From positions 1 through 64,000 of the forward strand of contig JAWBMD010000003.1 in the NCBI GenBank assembly GCA_039000985.1: DNA of 64,000 nucleotides. Reading direction: 5' to 3'. Below are positions 32,946-58,317 of this stretch, piece by piece; within the stretch, counting starts at the first letter, position 1; each line of letters opens with the position of its first letter. Both the position numbers and the translations under genes were made by a program. The stretch comes from Candidatus Aenigmatarchaeota archaeon. Its GTDB lineage: Archaea > Aenigmatarchaeota > Aenigmatarchaeia > CG10238-14 > SpSt-28. Below the pieces are notes generated by a model that saw only the letters and a list, made by a program, of their open reading frames with translations, searched no databases and was not told the origin of the DNA.

Positions 32946-33007
32946 TACCACCTCTGATAGAAAGATTTTTCTCATTTAATCAATCTGCCCGTCTATCTTC
33001 ATTGGCT
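32946..33007 (-). ncRNA. box C/D sRNA, predicted guide for 16S C1402
   Basis: C AUGAAGA, 12-nt guide UAGACGGGCAGA, D' UUGA, C' AUGAGAA, 12-nt guide, D CAGA; 9-nt match to 16S at 50051-50059. Confidence 0.75.
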
Positions 33008-45076: not shown

Positions 45077-45742
45077 TTATTTTTTATAAATTTTTATTTC
45101 ATCAAAAAAATCATTTTGAATACAATCTATTAATCCTTTCTTATCTAAATGTAAAACTGGAACAAAATAACTTACTATATTTTCAACATTCCATTCATCA
45201 ACTATTTCATCAAACAAAATAAATCCTTTATCTTTGCACAAATTAACTATTTTTTCATAAACATCATTCATTCTTTTTTCAAAATCCTTAGCTTGACCAA
45301 TTCTTATTTCTATTTGTCTTCTTCTTTCCCAAATTCTTCTTTCCTTTTTCTCTTTTAGTTCAATAACTTTTTTTAAAGCAATTATTAAATCATTCAAAGT
45401 TATAGGACCTTTTGGAATTCTTCTAATAGGGCTTTCAACATAAACTTCAATTTTTTCTACTGTTTCAACTTTTTCCTCTTTTGTTACTTCCTCCTCTTCC
45501 TTCTTTCTATCCAAATATTCCACTTTTATTCTAAGCAAAATAGAAGCAACAAAAATAACTTTAGCCGGTATTCTGAAATCCAACTCAACTACTTTATTCA
45601 AAAAATTTATAAAACCATTACAAAGTTTAACTAAATCTATATTCCATGGGTCTAAATTTTCTAAGCTAACAACATAATAAATAATTTCTTCCCAGCTTTC
45701 TTTTTTTATTATTTCACTTATTATGTTTTCTTCCAATATCAT
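45077..45742 (-). CDS. scpA: segregation/condensation kleisin ScpA
   Basis: LDPWNIDL, ASILLRIK, FVPVLHL...Q..FF.EI; follows smc. Confidence 0.92.
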   Translation of the reverse strand: MILEENIISEIIKKESWEEIIYYVVSLENLDPWNIDLVKLCNGFINFLNKVVELDFRIPAKVIFVASILLRIKVEYLDRKKEEEEVTKEEKVETVEKIEVYVESPIRRIPKGPITLNDLIIALKKVIELKEKKERRIWERRRQIEIRIGQAKDFEKRMNDVYEKIVNLCKDKGFILFDEIVDEWNVENIVSYFVPVLHLDKKGLIDCIQNDFFDEIKIYKK

Positions 45743-48700
45743 TTTGGTAATTCCAAGCTTACTATTTTTGATTCCCCATCTTCCATGCTTACTCCATATA
45801 TATAATCAGCAAACTTAAGAGCTTCTTCGTTATGCGAAATAACTATGAATTGAGAATCTTTTGAAAATTCTTTAATGACTTTCCAAATTAGTGTTGTGTT
45901 TTCTTTATCTAATGCTGCATCTATTTCATCAAACAAATAAAATAATGATGGTTTATATCTTTGAATAGCTAAAATAAAAGCTAAAGCTGTTACAGTTTTT
46001 TCTCCACCAGATAAAGAATCTATGTTAACAAGCTTTTTACCTGGAAAACTTGCTCTTATTAGTAAGCCGCTATCAATATTATCCTTTTCCTCAAGCTCAA
46101 GAGAAGCCTCCCCACCATTAATCCTTTTAAATATTTCATTAAAATTGTTACTTATTGCATTTAATGTTGAAATAAAAACTTCTTTTCTCCTTTTCTCTAT
46201 TTCATCAATCATTTTTAAAACAGCATCCCTTTCTTCACTAATTTTTTTAAATTTCAAAAAAATTTCTTCATATTCAGCTTTAAATTTCTCTAGCTCTTCT
46301 TCTGCTCTAAAATTAATGGTACCCAAGCTTTCTATCTTATTTGAAACTACTTTTATTTCATTTTCTATTTCGTTCAAACTTTTATTTACAAAAACAACAT
46401 CTTTATATTGTTGCAACTCCATTCTAACATTTTCAAAATCACTTTCTACTTTACCTTTATGAAAATTCAACTTGTTTATTTCATTTTGTAATTTGATTTT
46501 TTCTTCAATTAATTTCCTTCTTTTTTCTTTTAATGTTTCTAAAAGGATTGCAGAATTTTTTCTTAAGCTTTCTAAATTTTCCAAATCTTTACTTTCTTCT
46601 TTTGCTATTTCAAATTTAGATAATTCTTTTAAAATTTTTTCTCTTTCTTCTTTTAGTTTATTTAATTCCTCAATAGCTATTTTTCTTTTTTCAATAAGCT
46701 CATCTATATTAAACTCTTTTTTCCACGATTTTTTAACTAAATAACCACCAGTTAAAGCACCACTTCTCTCTATTAAATCACCATCTAATGTAACCATTCT
46801 AACTTCTCCAATTCCTATTTTTTCAACCGTATCTAAATCCTTAACAATTATTGTATTTCCAAATACAAATTCTATAGCATTTCTAAATTTTTCATCAAAT
46901 TTTAACAAATTGCTAGCAATACCGATATAACCATCTATGTTTTTAAATTTACTATCATCAATAACTTTACCCTTTATTTTATCTAATGGTAAAAATGTAG
47001 CTCTACCAATTTTATTATCTCTTAAATATTCTATACACAATCTAGCAATTTTAAAATCTTCAACAACTAAATCGTAATAATGATTTGCGGCAGCTATCTC
47101 TATTGCATATTCTAATTCTCTAGGAAATTTAATTAAAGAAGATATAGTACCAAAAACTCCTCTCAAATTTAATTTTAATACTGCTTTTACAGGAGAAGGA
47201 ATTTCTTCTATTTGCTTAGCTTCAGCCCTCGCTATGCTTTCATTAATGTTTTCTATTTCTCTTTCTTTAATTGTTATTTTGCTTTCTATTATACTTAAAG
47301 AATTTTGTAGTTTAATATATTCTTTTTCTTTTTCTAAGTTTTTGTAAGCGTTATAAATTTTTTCACCAATATCTTTAAGCACATTTTCATTTTTCTCTAT
47401 TTCTTGTTCTATTTTTTCACTTTCTTCTTCAATTTTCTTTTTCCTTTCTTCTAAAATATTCAAATTTTTTTCAATACTTTCTAAATTTTTTAATAAATAT
47501 TCTTCTTTTTTCTTCCAATACGATGCTTTTAAAGTAATTAGAGTTTTTTGGAGAGATTTGTAAGTATCAGCTATTTCTTTCTCTCTTTTCAATTTTTCTA
47601 AAATTTGATTTTTTTGATTAACAACAATTTCAACCTCTTTTAATTTTTGATTAACAAATTCCAAATCTTTTAGAGCTTTCTCCTTTTTTTCATTATACTC
47701 GCTTATTCCACAAATTTCATCTATTATTGCTTTTCTCTCTAAAGGATTCATTTCTATTATGTTTGCAACATCTCCTTGCAAAACTATATTATGTCCATCT
47801 GGATAAATTCTTACTGAAGATAAAACTTGTAAGATTTTTTCTCTTGTTGTAGTAATACCATTAAGTTTATAAACAGTAAATCCCTTTCTATTTACTTTTC
47901 TTGTAATTGTTATTTCTTGAGAATCTTCACCAAATATTTTATTTGAGTTATCGAAAGCTATAGAAACAGAAGCAATTTCTGCAGGTTTTTTATTTGGTGA
48001 GCCATGAAAAATTAATTCAGATAATCTATCTGCACGCAAACTTTTTGCACTAGTTCTTCCTAGAACAAAGCAAATAGCATCTATTATATTGCTATTATGA
48101 ACAATAATGTTATTAGCAATAAAATTGTGAAAATCTTTTATGCACAAATCATAAACCCATTTCTTTTTGTTTTCTTGTTTAATTTCAACGATTTCATCCC
48201 AAAATATATCAGATTTAATAAGCAAGTTAGCTAAATTTTCATCAATATCTTCTAAATTTAAATTTATATCATTACAATCTCTCAAAACAGCTATTTTTTC
48301 TCCAATCCTTAAATATTTTGATGGAATAGAAACTATTGAATTATTTCTTAAAACAAAAAATGGATGAGAATAAGTTACGGTCAATTCTTTACCACTAGCT
48401 GTTATTATTTTCAATAATTTGCAATCTATTCTTTTTATAAATGCATCTATTTTTCTTTCCTCAACTTTCAAAGTAAATGGATTTATAGAAAGAACTTTAT
48501 AATTGTTTGGATTATCTATACAGAAAACCCCATCAGATAGTTTTTTTATTTCTGAGCAGTTTTTTAAAGATTCATCAACAATTTCTTCAATAGTTTTATA
48601 TTCCCAATTAGATAAAGCTACTAATGTATTACCATCAACACATTTACCACTTCCATTTGGTCCTGTTATAATAGTTATACCTTTTTTAAATGGAATAGAT

Positions 48701-48750
48701 ATTCTTTTATTAAAGCTTTTAAATCCTTGCAATGTTAACTTTGTTATCAT
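45739..48750 (-). CDS. smc: chromosome segregation protein SMC, intein-containing, short coiled coils
   Basis: GFKSF, GPNGSGK|SN split by intein, hinge GRATFLPL, LSGGEK, DEIDAALD. Confidence 0.95.
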   Translation of the reverse strand: MITKLTLQGFKSFNKRISIPFKKGITIITGPNGSGKCVDGNTLVALSNWEYKTIEEIVDESLKNCSEIKKLSDGVFCIDNPNNYKVLSINPFTLKVEERKIDAFIKRIDCKLLKIITASGKELTVTYSHPFFVLRNNSIVSIPSKYLRIGEKIAVLRDCNDINLNLEDIDENLANLLIKSDIFWDEIVEIKQENKKKWVYDLCIKDFHNFIANNIIVHNSNIIDAICFVLGRTSAKSLRADRLSELIFHGSPNKKPAEIASVSIAFDNSNKIFGEDSQEITITRKVNRKGFTVYKLNGITTTREKILQVLSSVRIYPDGHNIVLQGDVANIIEMNPLERKAIIDEICGISEYNEKKEKALKDLEFVNQKLKEVEIVVNQKNQILEKLKREKEIADTYKSLQKTLITLKASYWKKKEEYLLKNLESIEKNLNILEERKKKIEEESEKIEQEIEKNENVLKDIGEKIYNAYKNLEKEKEYIKLQNSLSIIESKITIKEREIENINESIARAEAKQIEEIPSPVKAVLKLNLRGVFGTISSLIKFPRELEYAIEIAAANHYYDLVVEDFKIARLCIEYLRDNKIGRATFLPLDKIKGKVIDDSKFKNIDGYIGIASNLLKFDEKFRNAIEFVFGNTIIVKDLDTVEKIGIGEVRMVTLDGDLIERSGALTGGYLVKKSWKKEFNIDELIEKRKIAIEELNKLKEEREKILKELSKFEIAKEESKDLENLESLRKNSAILLETLKEKRRKLIEEKIKLQNEINKLNFHKGKVESDFENVRMELQQYKDVVFVNKSLNEIENEIKVVSNKIESLGTINFRAEEELEKFKAEYEEIFLKFKKISEERDAVLKMIDEIEKRRKEVFISTLNAISNNFNEIFKRINGGEASLELEEKDNIDSGLLIRASFPGKKLVNIDSLSGGEKTVTALAFILAIQRYKPSLFYLFDEIDAALDKENTTLIWKVIKEFSKDSQFIVISHNEEALKFADYIYGVSMEDGESKIVSLELPK
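48094..48642 (-). mobile_element. mini-intein (183 aa) in the SMC Walker A motif
   Basis: starts CVDGNT, block B TYSHPF, WDEI, VYDL, ends IVHN followed by Ser; no LAGLIDADG domain. Confidence 0.93.
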
Positions 48751-49730: not shown

Positions 49731-49871
49731 AATTATTTTTTCTAAACTTGCAAATTTATTTTACTTCTTTTCACAAAACTTCCAATTAAGAAAAAGTTAG
49801 GAGAAATAATTTTACAAAAATTTTTGATGCCTAGATTGAGAATTTTATGGTGATCCAGCCGCACGTTCCCG

Positions 49872-49958
49872 TTGCCTGATATGTGGAAATCTCGTTTCAC
49901 CATAAATTCTTCATCGCTCAGAATCAACCCAAGCTTTCATTATTTTTTCCACATATCT
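49872..49958 (-). ncRNA. 16S intron after position 1513 (87 nt) containing a two-guide box C/D RNA
   Basis: BHB ends, 12-bp terminal stem, C/D'/C'/D boxes with two 12-nt guides antisense to 16S. Confidence 0.85.
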
Positions 49959-50260
49959 TACGGCTACCTTGTGACGACTTACCCCCCCTCGCAGAGGTTC
50001 TACTCGACTATTTCTTCAATAGCCTTGTAGAACCTCTACTCGGTTGGGTTGACGGGCAGTGTGAGCAAAGGACAGGGACGTATTCAGCGAACGTTAGTGA
50101 CGTCCGCTTACTAGGGATTCCAGCTTCACGAGGGCGAGTTACAACCCTCGATCTGAACTGAGCACGCTTTTTAGGGATTTGCTCTCCCTTTCGGGTTCGC
50201 ATCCCATTGTAGCGTGCATTGTGTCGCGCGTGTAGCCCAGCGCAATAGGGGCATACGGAC

Positions 50261-51080
50261 TTCGACCAGCTAGAGAGCATTTATTAAACTTTTCATGTCT
50301 TCAAAAATTTTATCAAAAGCTTGAAGTTCTTCGCGATTAAAACTATCTAATTTTCTCTTAGTTTCTATTAGTCCTCAAACTTTAATCATTGGAAAATTGA
50401 ATTTAATTTTGAATCCTTGAAAAGCCAATTTTTGAATTTGTTCTTTTATTTCTCTTTTTGAGAAGGAATTTATTTCTTTGCATTCTATCACTATGTTACT
50501 GTCAGGTAAGAAAAAGTCAACTATAAGATTTTCTTTGAGTGGAAAGTTAACATGGAACCCAATATTCTTCTCCGATAGCGCTTTCTCCAGTAATCTCTCT
50601 TGTGGTGCACGTCTCTTTTTGAGACTTTCTATAGCTCCTTTTCTTCTTGCTTTTTGTGCTGCATAACTTTTTCCATGTACTTTAAACCATTCGATAGCTT
50701 CCATCTGAGATTTCTAAATCTATTTATTACTTCAGATAAAATTACTACCCGCATTCTACTCTGAATTTTATTAACCAATTTTCTGCAGTTTTAAATTGCA
50801 TTGTTTTTATTTTACCTAACTCGTACTTGTTGATATTTTTGGAAGGACTTCCTACGAATTTCTCAAACTCATTTTGTGATAATCCTAATGCTAACCTTAA
50901 TATCAATAGTTTTTGAGGGTTTAACATTAGAATTTCTGGAGAAATCTCCGTAAAGTTTTTGTTTCTATCTTTACTTCTTTAAAGAGTTTTCTTATTTTAT
51001 CCTCTGGAATTATAGTTTTTGGTATATATATTATACTGATGTACGACCATTTAAATCTTACTGACCAACTCTCTAGCTGT
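50261..51080 (-). mobile_element. 16S intron after position 1197 (820 nt)
   Basis: BHB: CGGU/GUCG central helix, CAGCUAGAGAG/CUCUCUAGCUG stem; AT-rich coding interior. Confidence 0.9.
50270..51050 (-). pseudogene. fragmented intron-encoded HTH(XRE) plus PD-(D/E)xK endonuclease-like ORF
   Basis: LRLALGLSQNEF..KYELG HTH; VDFFLPDSNIVIECK; frame breaks and an in-frame TGA at 50375. Confidence 0.7.
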
Positions 51081-51179
51081 CTACCGTCGCCCACACCTTC
51101 CTCCCACTTATCGCGGGCAGTCTCCCATGAGTGCCTCCTTTCTTTCGAAAGGAGTAGCAACATGGGATGTGGGTCTCGC

Positions 51180-51211
51180 TTCAACCCTGACCAGAAATAC
51201 TCTGGTCAAGT
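51180..51211 (-). other. 16S hairpin intron after position 1105 (32 nt)
   Basis: BHB UAAC/GUUG, stem CUUGACCAGAG/UUCUGGUCAGG. Confidence 0.85.
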
Positions 51212-51214
51212 TCG

Positions 51215-51246
51215 TTAGTCTCATCAAGCTATTTTTGCTCGATGAT
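51215..51246 (-). other. 16S hairpin intron after position 1102 (32 nt)
   Basis: BHB GGUU/GACU, stem UCAUCGAGC/GCUUGAUGA. Confidence 0.85.
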
Positions 51247-51544
51247 TTAACCGACTTGACGGCACGCCTCACGGTACGAGCTGACGGTGGCCATGCACCA
51301 CCGCTCGGCTTGTCTGGTAAGCCCTTCAGACTGACCATCATCCTGCCGTCTGCGCTGGTAAGATTTCCGGTGTCGAATCCAATTGAACCGCACGACCCAC
51401 CCCTTGTGTGTCCTCCCGCCAATTCCCTTAAGTTTCATCCTTTCGGACGTACTCCCCAGGCGGCCCACTTAACACCTTCGCTCCGGCACAGGGTACTCCC
51501 AAGGAGTACCCCACACCAAGTGGGCATCGTTTACGCCCAGGACT

Positions 51545-51624
51545 TTCCCGCGCAGATGGGGAGCAGTTCATTTCTCAAAGGATTAGATATTCTTCATATA
51601 ATCAGAAGATACTCCCAACCACGC
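51545..51624 (-). ncRNA. 16S intron after position 801 (80 nt) with a C/D guide module
   Basis: BHB CCCG/CGGG; interior CUGA..AUGAAGA-AUAUCUAAUCCU-UUGA..AUGAAC. Confidence 0.85.
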
Positions 51625-51703
51625 ACCGGGGTATCTAATCCCGATCGCTCCCCTGGGTTTCGTCCCTCACCGTCCGGACTGTTCCAGGCAGCCGCCTTCG
51701 CCA

Positions 51704-51900
51704 CTCACCCAACAGAGGTCGGCTTAAAAAAGACTGTTAGGAGTTTCTCTATAAAAAATAAAAACGTTGTTTTCTTTTTTCCAAGTAAATTATTTGGCAA
51801 CTCCTCTAAAAATTGTATTTTTTTTATTGTTAGAATTTCAATAAGTCTTTTAGTCAAAGCTCGAAGCGACTATAATTATTGACCGCCAACACTCTGCTGA
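51704..51900 (-). other. 16S intron after position 722 (197 nt), AT-rich interior probably an ORF remnant
   Basis: BHB CACC/GGUG, stem CAGCAGAG/CUCUGUUG. Confidence 0.85.
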
Positions 51901-52216
51901 CTGGTGGTCCCCATAGGATTAACGGATTTAACCCCTACCCTATGGGTACCGCTGCCCTCTCCCAGCCGCTAGACTAGCAGTATCTCCCCCAAGCTCACCA
52001 GTTTACTGGTGAATTTCAAGGGAGACTTACTAGTCCGGCTACGAACGCTTTAGGCCCAATATTCGTGCTCACCACTTGGGGCGCGGGTCTTACCGTGGCA
52101 GCTGGCACCCGTCTTGCCCACCCCTTATTCGCCCAACCGTTAACATTGGGCAAAAGCTCCTTACCAAAAGGTAAGAAGCACTCCGGCTACCCTCATCGGG
52201 CGTTAACCCATTGTGA

Positions 52217-52251
<35 letters not shown>

Positions 52252-52449
52252 CTCATGTCTCAGAGTCCATCTGGGGGCTCCCACTTCCATGGCCCCTACC
52301 CGTTATAGCCTTGTGGAGCTATTACCTCCACAACAAGCTGATAGGGGATAGTCTCATCCTCGAGCGGCTTCGAACGCCCCTTTGATATGGAGACATTCCA
52401 GTACTCCATATCTATGGGGTATTAGCCCCAGTTTCCCGGGATTATCCCC

Positions 52450-52482
52450 TTCGAGCCAAAAGTGATAGAAATCACTTATGGT
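52450..52482 (-). other. 16S hairpin intron near position 144 (33 nt)
   Basis: BHB CGAG/CUCG, stem CCAUAAGUGAU/AUCACUUUUGG. Confidence 0.85.
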
Positions 52483-52779
52483 CTCTCGAGGGTAGATTAA
52501 CTACCCATTACGCAGCAGTACGCCGAGGGCTTGCCCCTCACGGCTTGCATGGCTTAGTCGTAGCCGGATAGCAGTGAGCTCTGGTGGGATCAACCAGCAT
52601 CGAGAATGGCGGGAAATTCTCAATCTAGGTTTCATCAATTATAATCAACCCGTGTTCTTCTCGAACACGGAATCTAAGTGACCAAGGCGAAATTTACTTT
52701 TCATAAACATCTCTCAACGATTCTTCCAAGTTAGACACTCCTTGGTCAATAATATATATGGAAATTGGAATTTAAATAT

Positions 52780-58196: not shown

Positions 58197-58317
58197 GTGC
58201 TAGGGACTTCATGGATTTCCCGAGCAAAGATGCTCAGTACTCTCCATATCTCCGAGGAGCTTAACTTCTGTGTTCGGGATGGGAACAGGTGTTTCCTCCC
58301 CGATTTGGTCCCCAGCA
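58197..58317 (-). rRNA. rrf: 5S rRNA
   Basis: CCCATCCCGAACACAGAAGTTAAGC core; terminal helix GCTGGGGAC/GTCCCTAGC; about 120 nt. Confidence 0.93.

Follow-up and report, generated by a model that had tools for sequence, protein, structure and literature searches.

What is an 87-nucleotide (nt) intron doing in helix 45 of an archaeal 16S ribosomal RNA (rRNA), and what does it encode? The intron lies in a 64,000-nt stretch of DNA from Candidatus Aenigmatarchaeota archaeon (positions 1 to 64,000 of contig JAWBMD010000003.1, assembly GCA_039000985.1), the whole of which is called the window here and which belongs to a genome of 843 kb that is 89.7% complete (G000). Among named records, the L11 protein of this genome is closest to one from Candidatus Aenigmatarchaeota, with 79% identity. 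An archaeal 16S rRNA (Rfam RF01959) is found on the minus strand of the window, and the Rfam scan, E. coli numbering and RNA contigs together place the gene at 49843..52600 (-). Within this gene a bulge-helix-bulge (BHB) intron at 49872..49958 (-), recognised by its sequence, its fold and an RNA back-junction, follows 16S position 1513, in the stem of helix 45 and two base pairs off the GGAA loop. Positions are given in what we take to be the standard E. coli 16S numbers, assigned with a fetched E. coli operon and with 2 added at the 3' end. It is very probable that this intron is the cell's only gene for a box C/D guide RNA of the sR13 type, spliced out as a circle.

Excision of the intron

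The intron is excised in vivo as a circle. Splicing was assessed from the contigs of four RNA runs (X1-X4), compared with the whole 16S gene; run X4 and the runs with a small share were uninformative on this point. The original prediction had named an 87-nt circle as a check on its reading, and a back-junction from 49958 to 49872, 87 nt long and with exactly the predicted ends, is present in RNA contigs of two of the four runs (X1 and X3), which come from two studies. Run X1 holds the organism of G000 or a near-identical strain, its 796-nt 16S contig differing by one letter, and in this contig the 820-nt intron and the small introns of the gene are already spliced out. The circle contig reaches a depth of 275 in X1 and 5.7 in X3, the former to be set against 69 for the 820-nt intron and 23 for a 197-nt intron of the same gene, contig depth being a rough and poor measure of abundance that over-amplification may inflate for small circles. 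As proof of exon ligation, joints at 49869/49870>49959 were considered and rejected, as their letters differ and belong to other organisms.

The splice motif is a relaxed BHB. Its 5' half (49958..49964 (-)) consists of the central-helix strand GCCG and the bulge UA^A, the cut coinciding with the circle end, and its 3' half (49871..49877 (-)) of the strand AGGC and the bulge AA^C, giving two 3-nt bulges and a central helix with three of four pairs and one G.A mismatch. In the second genome of the same genus (G001) UGGC stands for AGGC, so that a G-U pair replaces the mismatch and the central helix is fully paired. The fold has a 12-bp terminal stem (5' arm 49946..49957, 3' arm 49878..49889, both on the minus strand), the pairing of which is preserved in G001 despite base changes, and deletion of the intron in silico restores helix 45 as it is found in intron-less relatives. 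The splicing endonuclease EndA (PF01974) and the ligase RtcB (PF01139) both score over the cut-off in G000, and from the motif and the presence of the enzyme we infer that the transfer RNA (tRNA) splicing endonuclease cuts the BHB. At 87 nt the intron is much shorter than the catalytic core of a group I intron, which spans several hundred bases, and Rfam gave no group I match in the window.

Two guides and their targets

Inside the terminal stem, the intron has the layout of a two-guide box C/D small RNA (sRNA), all elements being on the minus strand. Box C (AUGAAAG, 49934..49940; mostly AUGAAAA or AUGAUAA in the family) is followed by guide 1, the 12-nt D' guide (49922..49933), by the canonical box D' CUGA (49918..49921; CTGA in 44 of 46 copies), by a GCG spacer and by box C' (AUGAAGA, 49908..49914), a variant common among N. 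equitans sRNAs. Guide 2, the 12-nt D guide (49896..49907), then leads to a box D (49892..49895) that comparison of the copies marks as degenerate, ACGA for a family consensus of UUGA. Guide 1 is complementary to 16S positions 1405-1414 in the decoding-site strand of helix 44 (50044..50053 (-)), with 9 nt and one G-U paired (duplex -14.8 kcal/mol), and its D'+5 nucleotide is A1408 (50050). Guide 2 is complementary over 10 nt (duplex -12.8 kcal/mol) to positions 1532-1541 in the 16S 3' tail UCACCAUAAA (49844..49853 (-)), with C1535 (49850) as the nominal D+5 nucleotide. No other match of at least 8 nt to either guide exists in the 16S region. The coordinates of boxes, guides, targets and D+5 nucleotides in the original prediction were all confirmed on the sequence, and its layout of two guides, the first aimed at A1408, agrees with the box order, the pairing and the family copies.

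The internal C'/D' motif (CUGA and AUGAAGA) fits the box C/D consensus. That consensus is RUGAUGA/CUGA, from which the C and D boxes of the intron depart; in the terminal C/D motif (AUGAAAG/ACGA) the tandem GA is retained and the adjacent pairs are not, UUGA being the family norm. Dinucleotide shuffling of the 56-nt loop, repeated 20000 times, never gave both matches at the observed positions, which upholds the claim that they are not due to chance, and the same shuffles gave two 9-mers anywhere 26 times and the box layout 15 times. No Rfam family scored above threshold for the guide RNA of the window: weak matches of the intron to sR2, sR5 and SNORD69 lie below the gathering score, and Neq sR13 itself is likewise matched only below that score.

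A family of intron-borne copies

Of 118 genomes in the order, 44 match a strict cassette pattern (none with a reversed-pattern control); the pattern missed many copies that were recovered by a family model built from 42 copies. At a threshold of E<1e-5 the model gave 81 matches in 79 of the 118 genomes, with one copy in 77 and two each in G106, a 1.7-Mb genome that has two 16S genes, and in G063, which has a contamination of 6%. The single match in G000 is the window intron. We inspected 72 copies, comprising 69 of the 81 matches and three weak ones, and all 72 are intronic, none being free-standing. With 16S insertion sites assigned from the flanks, 44 lie in 16S introns (23 after 1513, 11 after 1499, nine between A1492 and A1493, and one after 1520) and 28 in the intron of tRNA-Ser(UGA) (26 by script, two by eye). 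The original prediction had presented the RNA as a guide for its own host; its targets do lie in its own 16S, but the tRNA-borne copies make a location in cis unnecessary. In all 30 loci parsed, the anticodon loop of the host tRNA reads C-U-UGA-R and then gives way to the intron, and ARAGORN returned Ser(UGA) for 24 of them; both results overturn a candidate assignment to Leu(CAA), and a plain tRNA tool detected none of the cassette-hosting tRNAs. The tRNA-Ser(UGA) of G000 has a 29-nt intron without the cassette.

Outside the order, copies in 16S introns occur at 1513 and 1492/1493, together with one 16S insertion near 1360. The strict pattern was found in 3 of 301 genomes of a Nanoarchaeota sample (one inspected), and the Micrarchaeota were sampled with one genome. 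More broadly, among 80 distinct insertions of 55-140 nt in the 16S genes of relatives, 28 contain a guide of at least 9 nt that is flanked by boxes and matches the 16S in which it lies, whereas shuffling gave 4 in 4000. The 28 are an undercount in which G000 was left out and several sR13 copies were missed in parsing.

Judging by the copies, the family has kept the D' box and both guides through changes of stem and insertion site, the opposite of the pattern, stem kept and boxes and guides lost, that the original prediction had set down as contradicting it. The cassette seems to have been relocated between introns, probably out of the tRNA-Ser(UGA) intron into the site seen here. That the intron is a selfish or neutral hairpin in which only the relic of a guide has survived, the true guide being elsewhere or unneeded, is a very improbable alternative. 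This reading would suit the degenerate C and D boxes, the short hairpin and remnant introns of archaeal 16S genes (PMC4496867) and the non-essential intron guide of Haloferax tRNA-Trp (PMC7714728). It is at odds with a genome whose one model match is the window intron and whose tRNA-Ser(UGA) intron lacks the cassette, with the conservation just described, and with the depth of the circle contig compared to those of the 820-nt and 197-nt introns, rough as this measure is.

Covariation with a rewritten 3' tail

The 3' tail of the 16S rRNA in G000 lacks the CCUCC anti-Shine-Dalgarno. Most hosts have the tail UCACCUCCU paired with guide 2 GGAGGUGA; in G000 the tail UCACCAUAAA is paired with UUUAUGGUGA, and in G001 the tail UCACUACAAA is paired with UUUGUAGUGA. 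The G001 tail differs from that of G000 at two positions, and its guide differs at both partners. Cross-pairing was computed for 32 of 46 rows, the 14 others being dropped (own target missing, three mis-parsed guides, one wrong anchor). Guide 2 of G000 pairs over 10 nt with its own tail and over 4-5 nt with the 31 others, and guide 2 of the other hosts pairs over 7-13 nt with their own tails and 5-6 nt with that of G000. The compensatory changes proposed as a check on the original prediction are therefore present, guide 2 of G000 and G001 following the altered tails, and this covariation shows selection on the pairing of guide 2 with the 1532-1541 tail.

Guide 1 changes along with its target too, with G1410-to-C in the genus of G000 and with A1409-to-C in genus g2, where the cassette is tRNA-borne; in G005 and G011 a tRNA-borne GGCGUGA covaries in trans with the target GUCACGCC. 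G-U wobbles are tolerated in both guides, as expected of RNA pairing.

Could guide 2 and the tail be no guide and target at all, but a close DNA inverted repeat, about 45 nt apart and kept uniform by template switching, or else a helix formed in cis as an aid to splicing? We consider this improbable. It would explain why changed tails are tracked only where the cassette adjoins the tail (G000, G001) and why the G000 match extends 4 nt into box C' if one A is bulged. However, boxes C' and D bound the match in all copies, a match of 8-10 nt persists in tRNA-borne copies distant from 16S, G-U wobbles in guide 2 persist (G006, G010, G016), and the free-standing gene of N. equitans has the same guide with measured methylation (PMC5389701). 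Moreover, guide 1 would be left unexplained.

The anti-Shine-Dalgarno is also gone in genus g2 and in G018, with differing tails (L007, L008, L009, L011, L023, L028), which points to more than one loss in one family. Shine-Dalgarno motifs showed no enrichment before 579 long open reading frames of crudely chosen start codons (GGAG, 12 vs 20 upstream).

Relation to known guide RNAs and introns

The guide itself has a counterpart in N. equitans. The same two guides are listed for Neq sR13 by Dennis et al. 2015 (PMC4644070), and Seistrup et al. 2017 (PMC5389701) report Am1408, Am1409 and Am1534 as measured in N. equitans and suggest sR13 as an RsmA substitute. Going by these accounts, the two RNAs share their guide order, a D' guide to A1408, a D guide to the region that is 1531-1540 for sR13, a core near-identical to the family consensus and a host without RsmA. 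Judged by its letters the guide RNA of the window is an sR13 orthologue, and so not new as a guide. The two differ in that sR13 is free-standing (L216 has its published letters, and no tRNA was called in the surrounding 3 kb), whereas the window copy is an rRNA intron circularised by splicing; in box D, canonical CUGA in sR13 and ACGA here; in one more base before box D in sR13, which selects A1534 rather than C1535; and in the guides themselves, which are rewritten in the window intron, sR13 being aimed at a normal anti-Shine-Dalgarno.

Like archaeal C/D guides in tRNA introns, the window copy is an excised BHB intron that would guide its own host RNA, but those guides have a tRNA host and a fixed site, in contrast to a family with a 16S host and several unrelated intron sites. 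It shares BHB ends, a terminal stem and the presence of several introns per gene with the 16S BHB introns of Thermoproteales, which Jay and Inskeep 2015 (PMC4496867) class as homing-endonuclease, short hairpin or remnant introns; in the main text of that paper the strings sRNA, snoRNA, guide, methylat and box never occur. Concerning intronic archaeal C/D RNAs, tRNA introns are the sole hosts named in the accessible parts of Breuer et al. 2021 (PMC7994747), Randau 2012 (PMC3491384) and PMC7714728, and rRNA introns are treated without guides in those of PMC4496867 and Nawrocki et al. 2018 (PMC6125680). We found nothing relevant in PMC12918454 or PMC7897474. Our literature search, which took in few subscription papers and no preprint supplements, turned up no publication that describes C/D guides in the rRNA introns of archaea, though one may exist. 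On the evidence of sequence, the arrangement is that of a BHB intron which is also a C/D sRNA and a member of the sR13 family. Eukaryotic intronic small nucleolar RNAs (snoRNAs) are likewise guide RNAs released from introns, but with spliceosomal lariats and mRNA-type hosts this is an analogy only. At the 3' end of 18S rRNA, U13/snR45 pair near helix 45, flank one site and guide acetylation.

A model for the two halves of the guide

These comparisons enable us to propose a mechanism. The tRNA splicing endonuclease would cut the relaxed BHB, the excised 87-nt intron is ligated to a circle, presumably by RtcB, and the joined exons would let helix 45 close. The circle would be bound by L7Ae, Nop5 and fibrillarin, all three of which are encoded in G000, its canonical C'/D' half guiding 2'-O-methylation of the decoding-site A1408 while the second guide would pair with the tail at 1532-1541. 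By analogy with the measured orthologue we expect, with considerable confidence, that Am1408 exists in this organism. Judging by the hairpin of the spliced form, helix 45 is blocked until the intron has left, so that splicing, guide release and helix 45 folding would be coupled here. Such coupling cannot be a requirement, as other hosts make do with the other insertion sites or the tRNA, and the circle most likely acts freely in trans.

Several observations weigh against this mechanism. The covariation amounts to about three or four independent events among related genomes, and tail tracking by guide 2 is limited to cis copies. The sister genus g2 has lost the anti-Shine-Dalgarno as well, and its guide 2 no longer matches the tail; taken together with five tRNA-borne copies outside the order that carry guide 1 only, this makes guide 2 dispensable. 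Box D is ACGA (G000), TTAA or TAAA in the eight 16S copies of the host family, and the seven copies closest to G000 (G001 and six of genus g3) lack the GA altogether. An exon-exon joint of the 87-nt intron in its own sequence is absent among the joints listed.

Among the 38 copies beyond those eight, box D reads TTGA in 33 and NNGA in 37, and guide 2 pairs over 10-12 nt in the 16S copies of the host family, where parsed, and over 8-9 nt in most others. This decay of box D with pairing kept is the main doubt about Cm1535 and led us to consider pairing without methylation. The second target of the original prediction accordingly stands as a 10-nt pairing with the tail, its methylation being doubtful with an ACGA box and with sR13 methylating A1534 (PMC5389701). 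We place methylation of C1535 somewhat on the unlikely side, and pairing without methylation at about the same level.

The absence of other factors bears on this question. RsmA/Dim1 had no full-length match in G000, with 14 of 14 controls matched, and among the 118 genomes of the order a full-length match occurs in one alone, the contaminated G063; the other 117 have at best partial matches, with E 4e-10 or weaker. A Nob1-type PIN domain was not matched in G000; of the controls, 4 of 14 gave a match. The genomes are incomplete, and protein absences are soft.

It is conceivable, at slightly less than an even chance, that the RNA is half guide and half chaperone, with the D' half methylating A1408 and guide 2 holding the tail in 30S assembly or 3'-end trimming without methylating it, in place of the RsmA/Dim1 checkpoint for helix 45, which is missing. 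The role of guide 2 is the one point on which this departs from our preferred explanation. It would account for a decayed box D beside longer pairing in the host family and for the missing RsmA and Nob1-type matches, and it follows the suggestion of Seistrup et al. (PMC5389701) that sR13 acts in place of the RsmA checkpoint. Conversely, genus g2, also without full-length RsmA, has lost guide 2 pairing, tRNA-borne copies of family f5 pair over 10 nt with CCGA/CTGA boxes, and absences from a genome of 89.7% completeness carry limited weight. By k-turn rules the GA of box D is required for sheared pairs, and ACGA retains it.

A wider scenario, tentative and rather unlikely as a whole, would make Aenigmatarchaeota rRNA introns working C/D guide loci. 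In it, sR13 would have moved repeatedly, as a single copy, between the intron of a tRNA and four or more positions in the rRNA that it targets; here 30S maturation would be coupled to splicing, with the circle methylating A1408 and clamping the tail as a stand-in for RsmA/Dim1, and the second half would be a non-methylating chaperone following a tail without an anti-Shine-Dalgarno.

Returning to the intron as the sole sR13-type gene of its cell, archaeal rRNA introns have so far been described as homing-endonuclease carriers, hairpins or remnants, and here one would be the only gene that encodes a conserved modification guide directed at its own host. That status would make the intron hard to lose, a prokaryotic counterpart of intronic snoRNAs. 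The family would also make the mobility of a guide RNA, a question left open by Randau 2012 (PMC3491384), traceable in sequenced genomes that contain both the donor and the recipient sites. It widens the idea of sR13 standing in for RsmA beyond a single species, to an order whose genomes lack a full-length match in 117 cases out of 118. The locus itself contributes a circle in RNA data, a guide that has kept step with the loss of the anti-Shine-Dalgarno, and a box D that has decayed although pairing is retained. As the host lost the anti-Shine-Dalgarno while guide pairing persisted, the purpose of guide 2 can be tested, in a system that could separate roles in translation initiation, methylation and assembly. 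Short 16S and 23S insertions in DPANN genomes are worth screening as sRNA genes.

Other features of the gene and genome

The 16S gene contains further insertions at 52450-52482, 51703-51899, 51545-51624, 51181-51246 (two small ones) and 50261-51080, all on the minus strand. RNA joints support introns at 51703-51899, 51181-51246 and 52450-52482, and the back-junction of the first, the 197-nt intron, is also present in X1. The 820-nt intron (50261-51080) is spliced in X1, X2 and X3 and holds a 109-amino-acid open reading frame with a weak DpnII-MboI-like match alone (E 0.004); its X1 copy has one 4-base insertion and one 1-base deletion relative to the window. Conserved motifs resembling processing stems flank the gene at 49780-49835 and 52670-52700 (-), and the 16S is unlinked to the 23S, which sits on contig C12, with 5S at 58198-58316.

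Other C/D-like elements were also noted, and a loose genome-wide C/D scan of G000 gave 36 matches compared with 35 and 35 in the nulls, a count that lends no support. The 80-nt BHB-type insertion after 16S position 801 (51545-51624 (-)) combines CUGA, AUGAAGA and UUGA with a C-like box that is permuted. Its 12-nt guide points to 785-794, with D+5 at about U788, and many relatives have homologues. The insertion is kept in the otherwise spliced 796-nt contig of X1 and in one X2 contig, and so may splice slowly or never. An 87-nt 23S intron (L001, G000:C12:57119-57033 (-)) has boxes UUGA and AUGA and carries two guides. The first is aimed at the P loop, with D'+5 at G2251 and 7 bp in addition to G-U pairs; the second, 10 nt long, is directed at about U2438. 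A C/D cassette directly 5' of tRNA-Pro(CGG) (window 32950-33002 (-)) has a 9-nt guide with D+5 at C1402. These two assignments, G2251 and C1402, come from the D+5 rule read by eye, and we take both to be widely methylated sites. The 23S leader (G000:C12:59800-59960 (-)) holds C/D-like elements, one with an 11-nt complementarity near 23S 2596-2606. Cm1402 is also given in PMC5389701.

A second intron-borne guide family, at a 16S site about 1357-1370, targets a G near 1050 of the host 16S (L080, L086, L093, L097, L100, L104, L105, L122) and is absent from the window 16S. At five loci (L033, L034, L043, L055, L065) a CUGA/AUGAUGA element just 5' of tRNA-Ser(UGA) is complementary to its anticodon arm, and the 29-nt tRNA-Ser intron of G000 (G000:C22:52135-52249) has a similar stretch. 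Finally, an SMC-like gene in the window (45739-48750 (-)) has an apparent intein, seen by eye, after its Walker A motif, and a long in-frame insert splits the RtcB gene (G000:C1:66304-69051, a frame of 966 amino acids).
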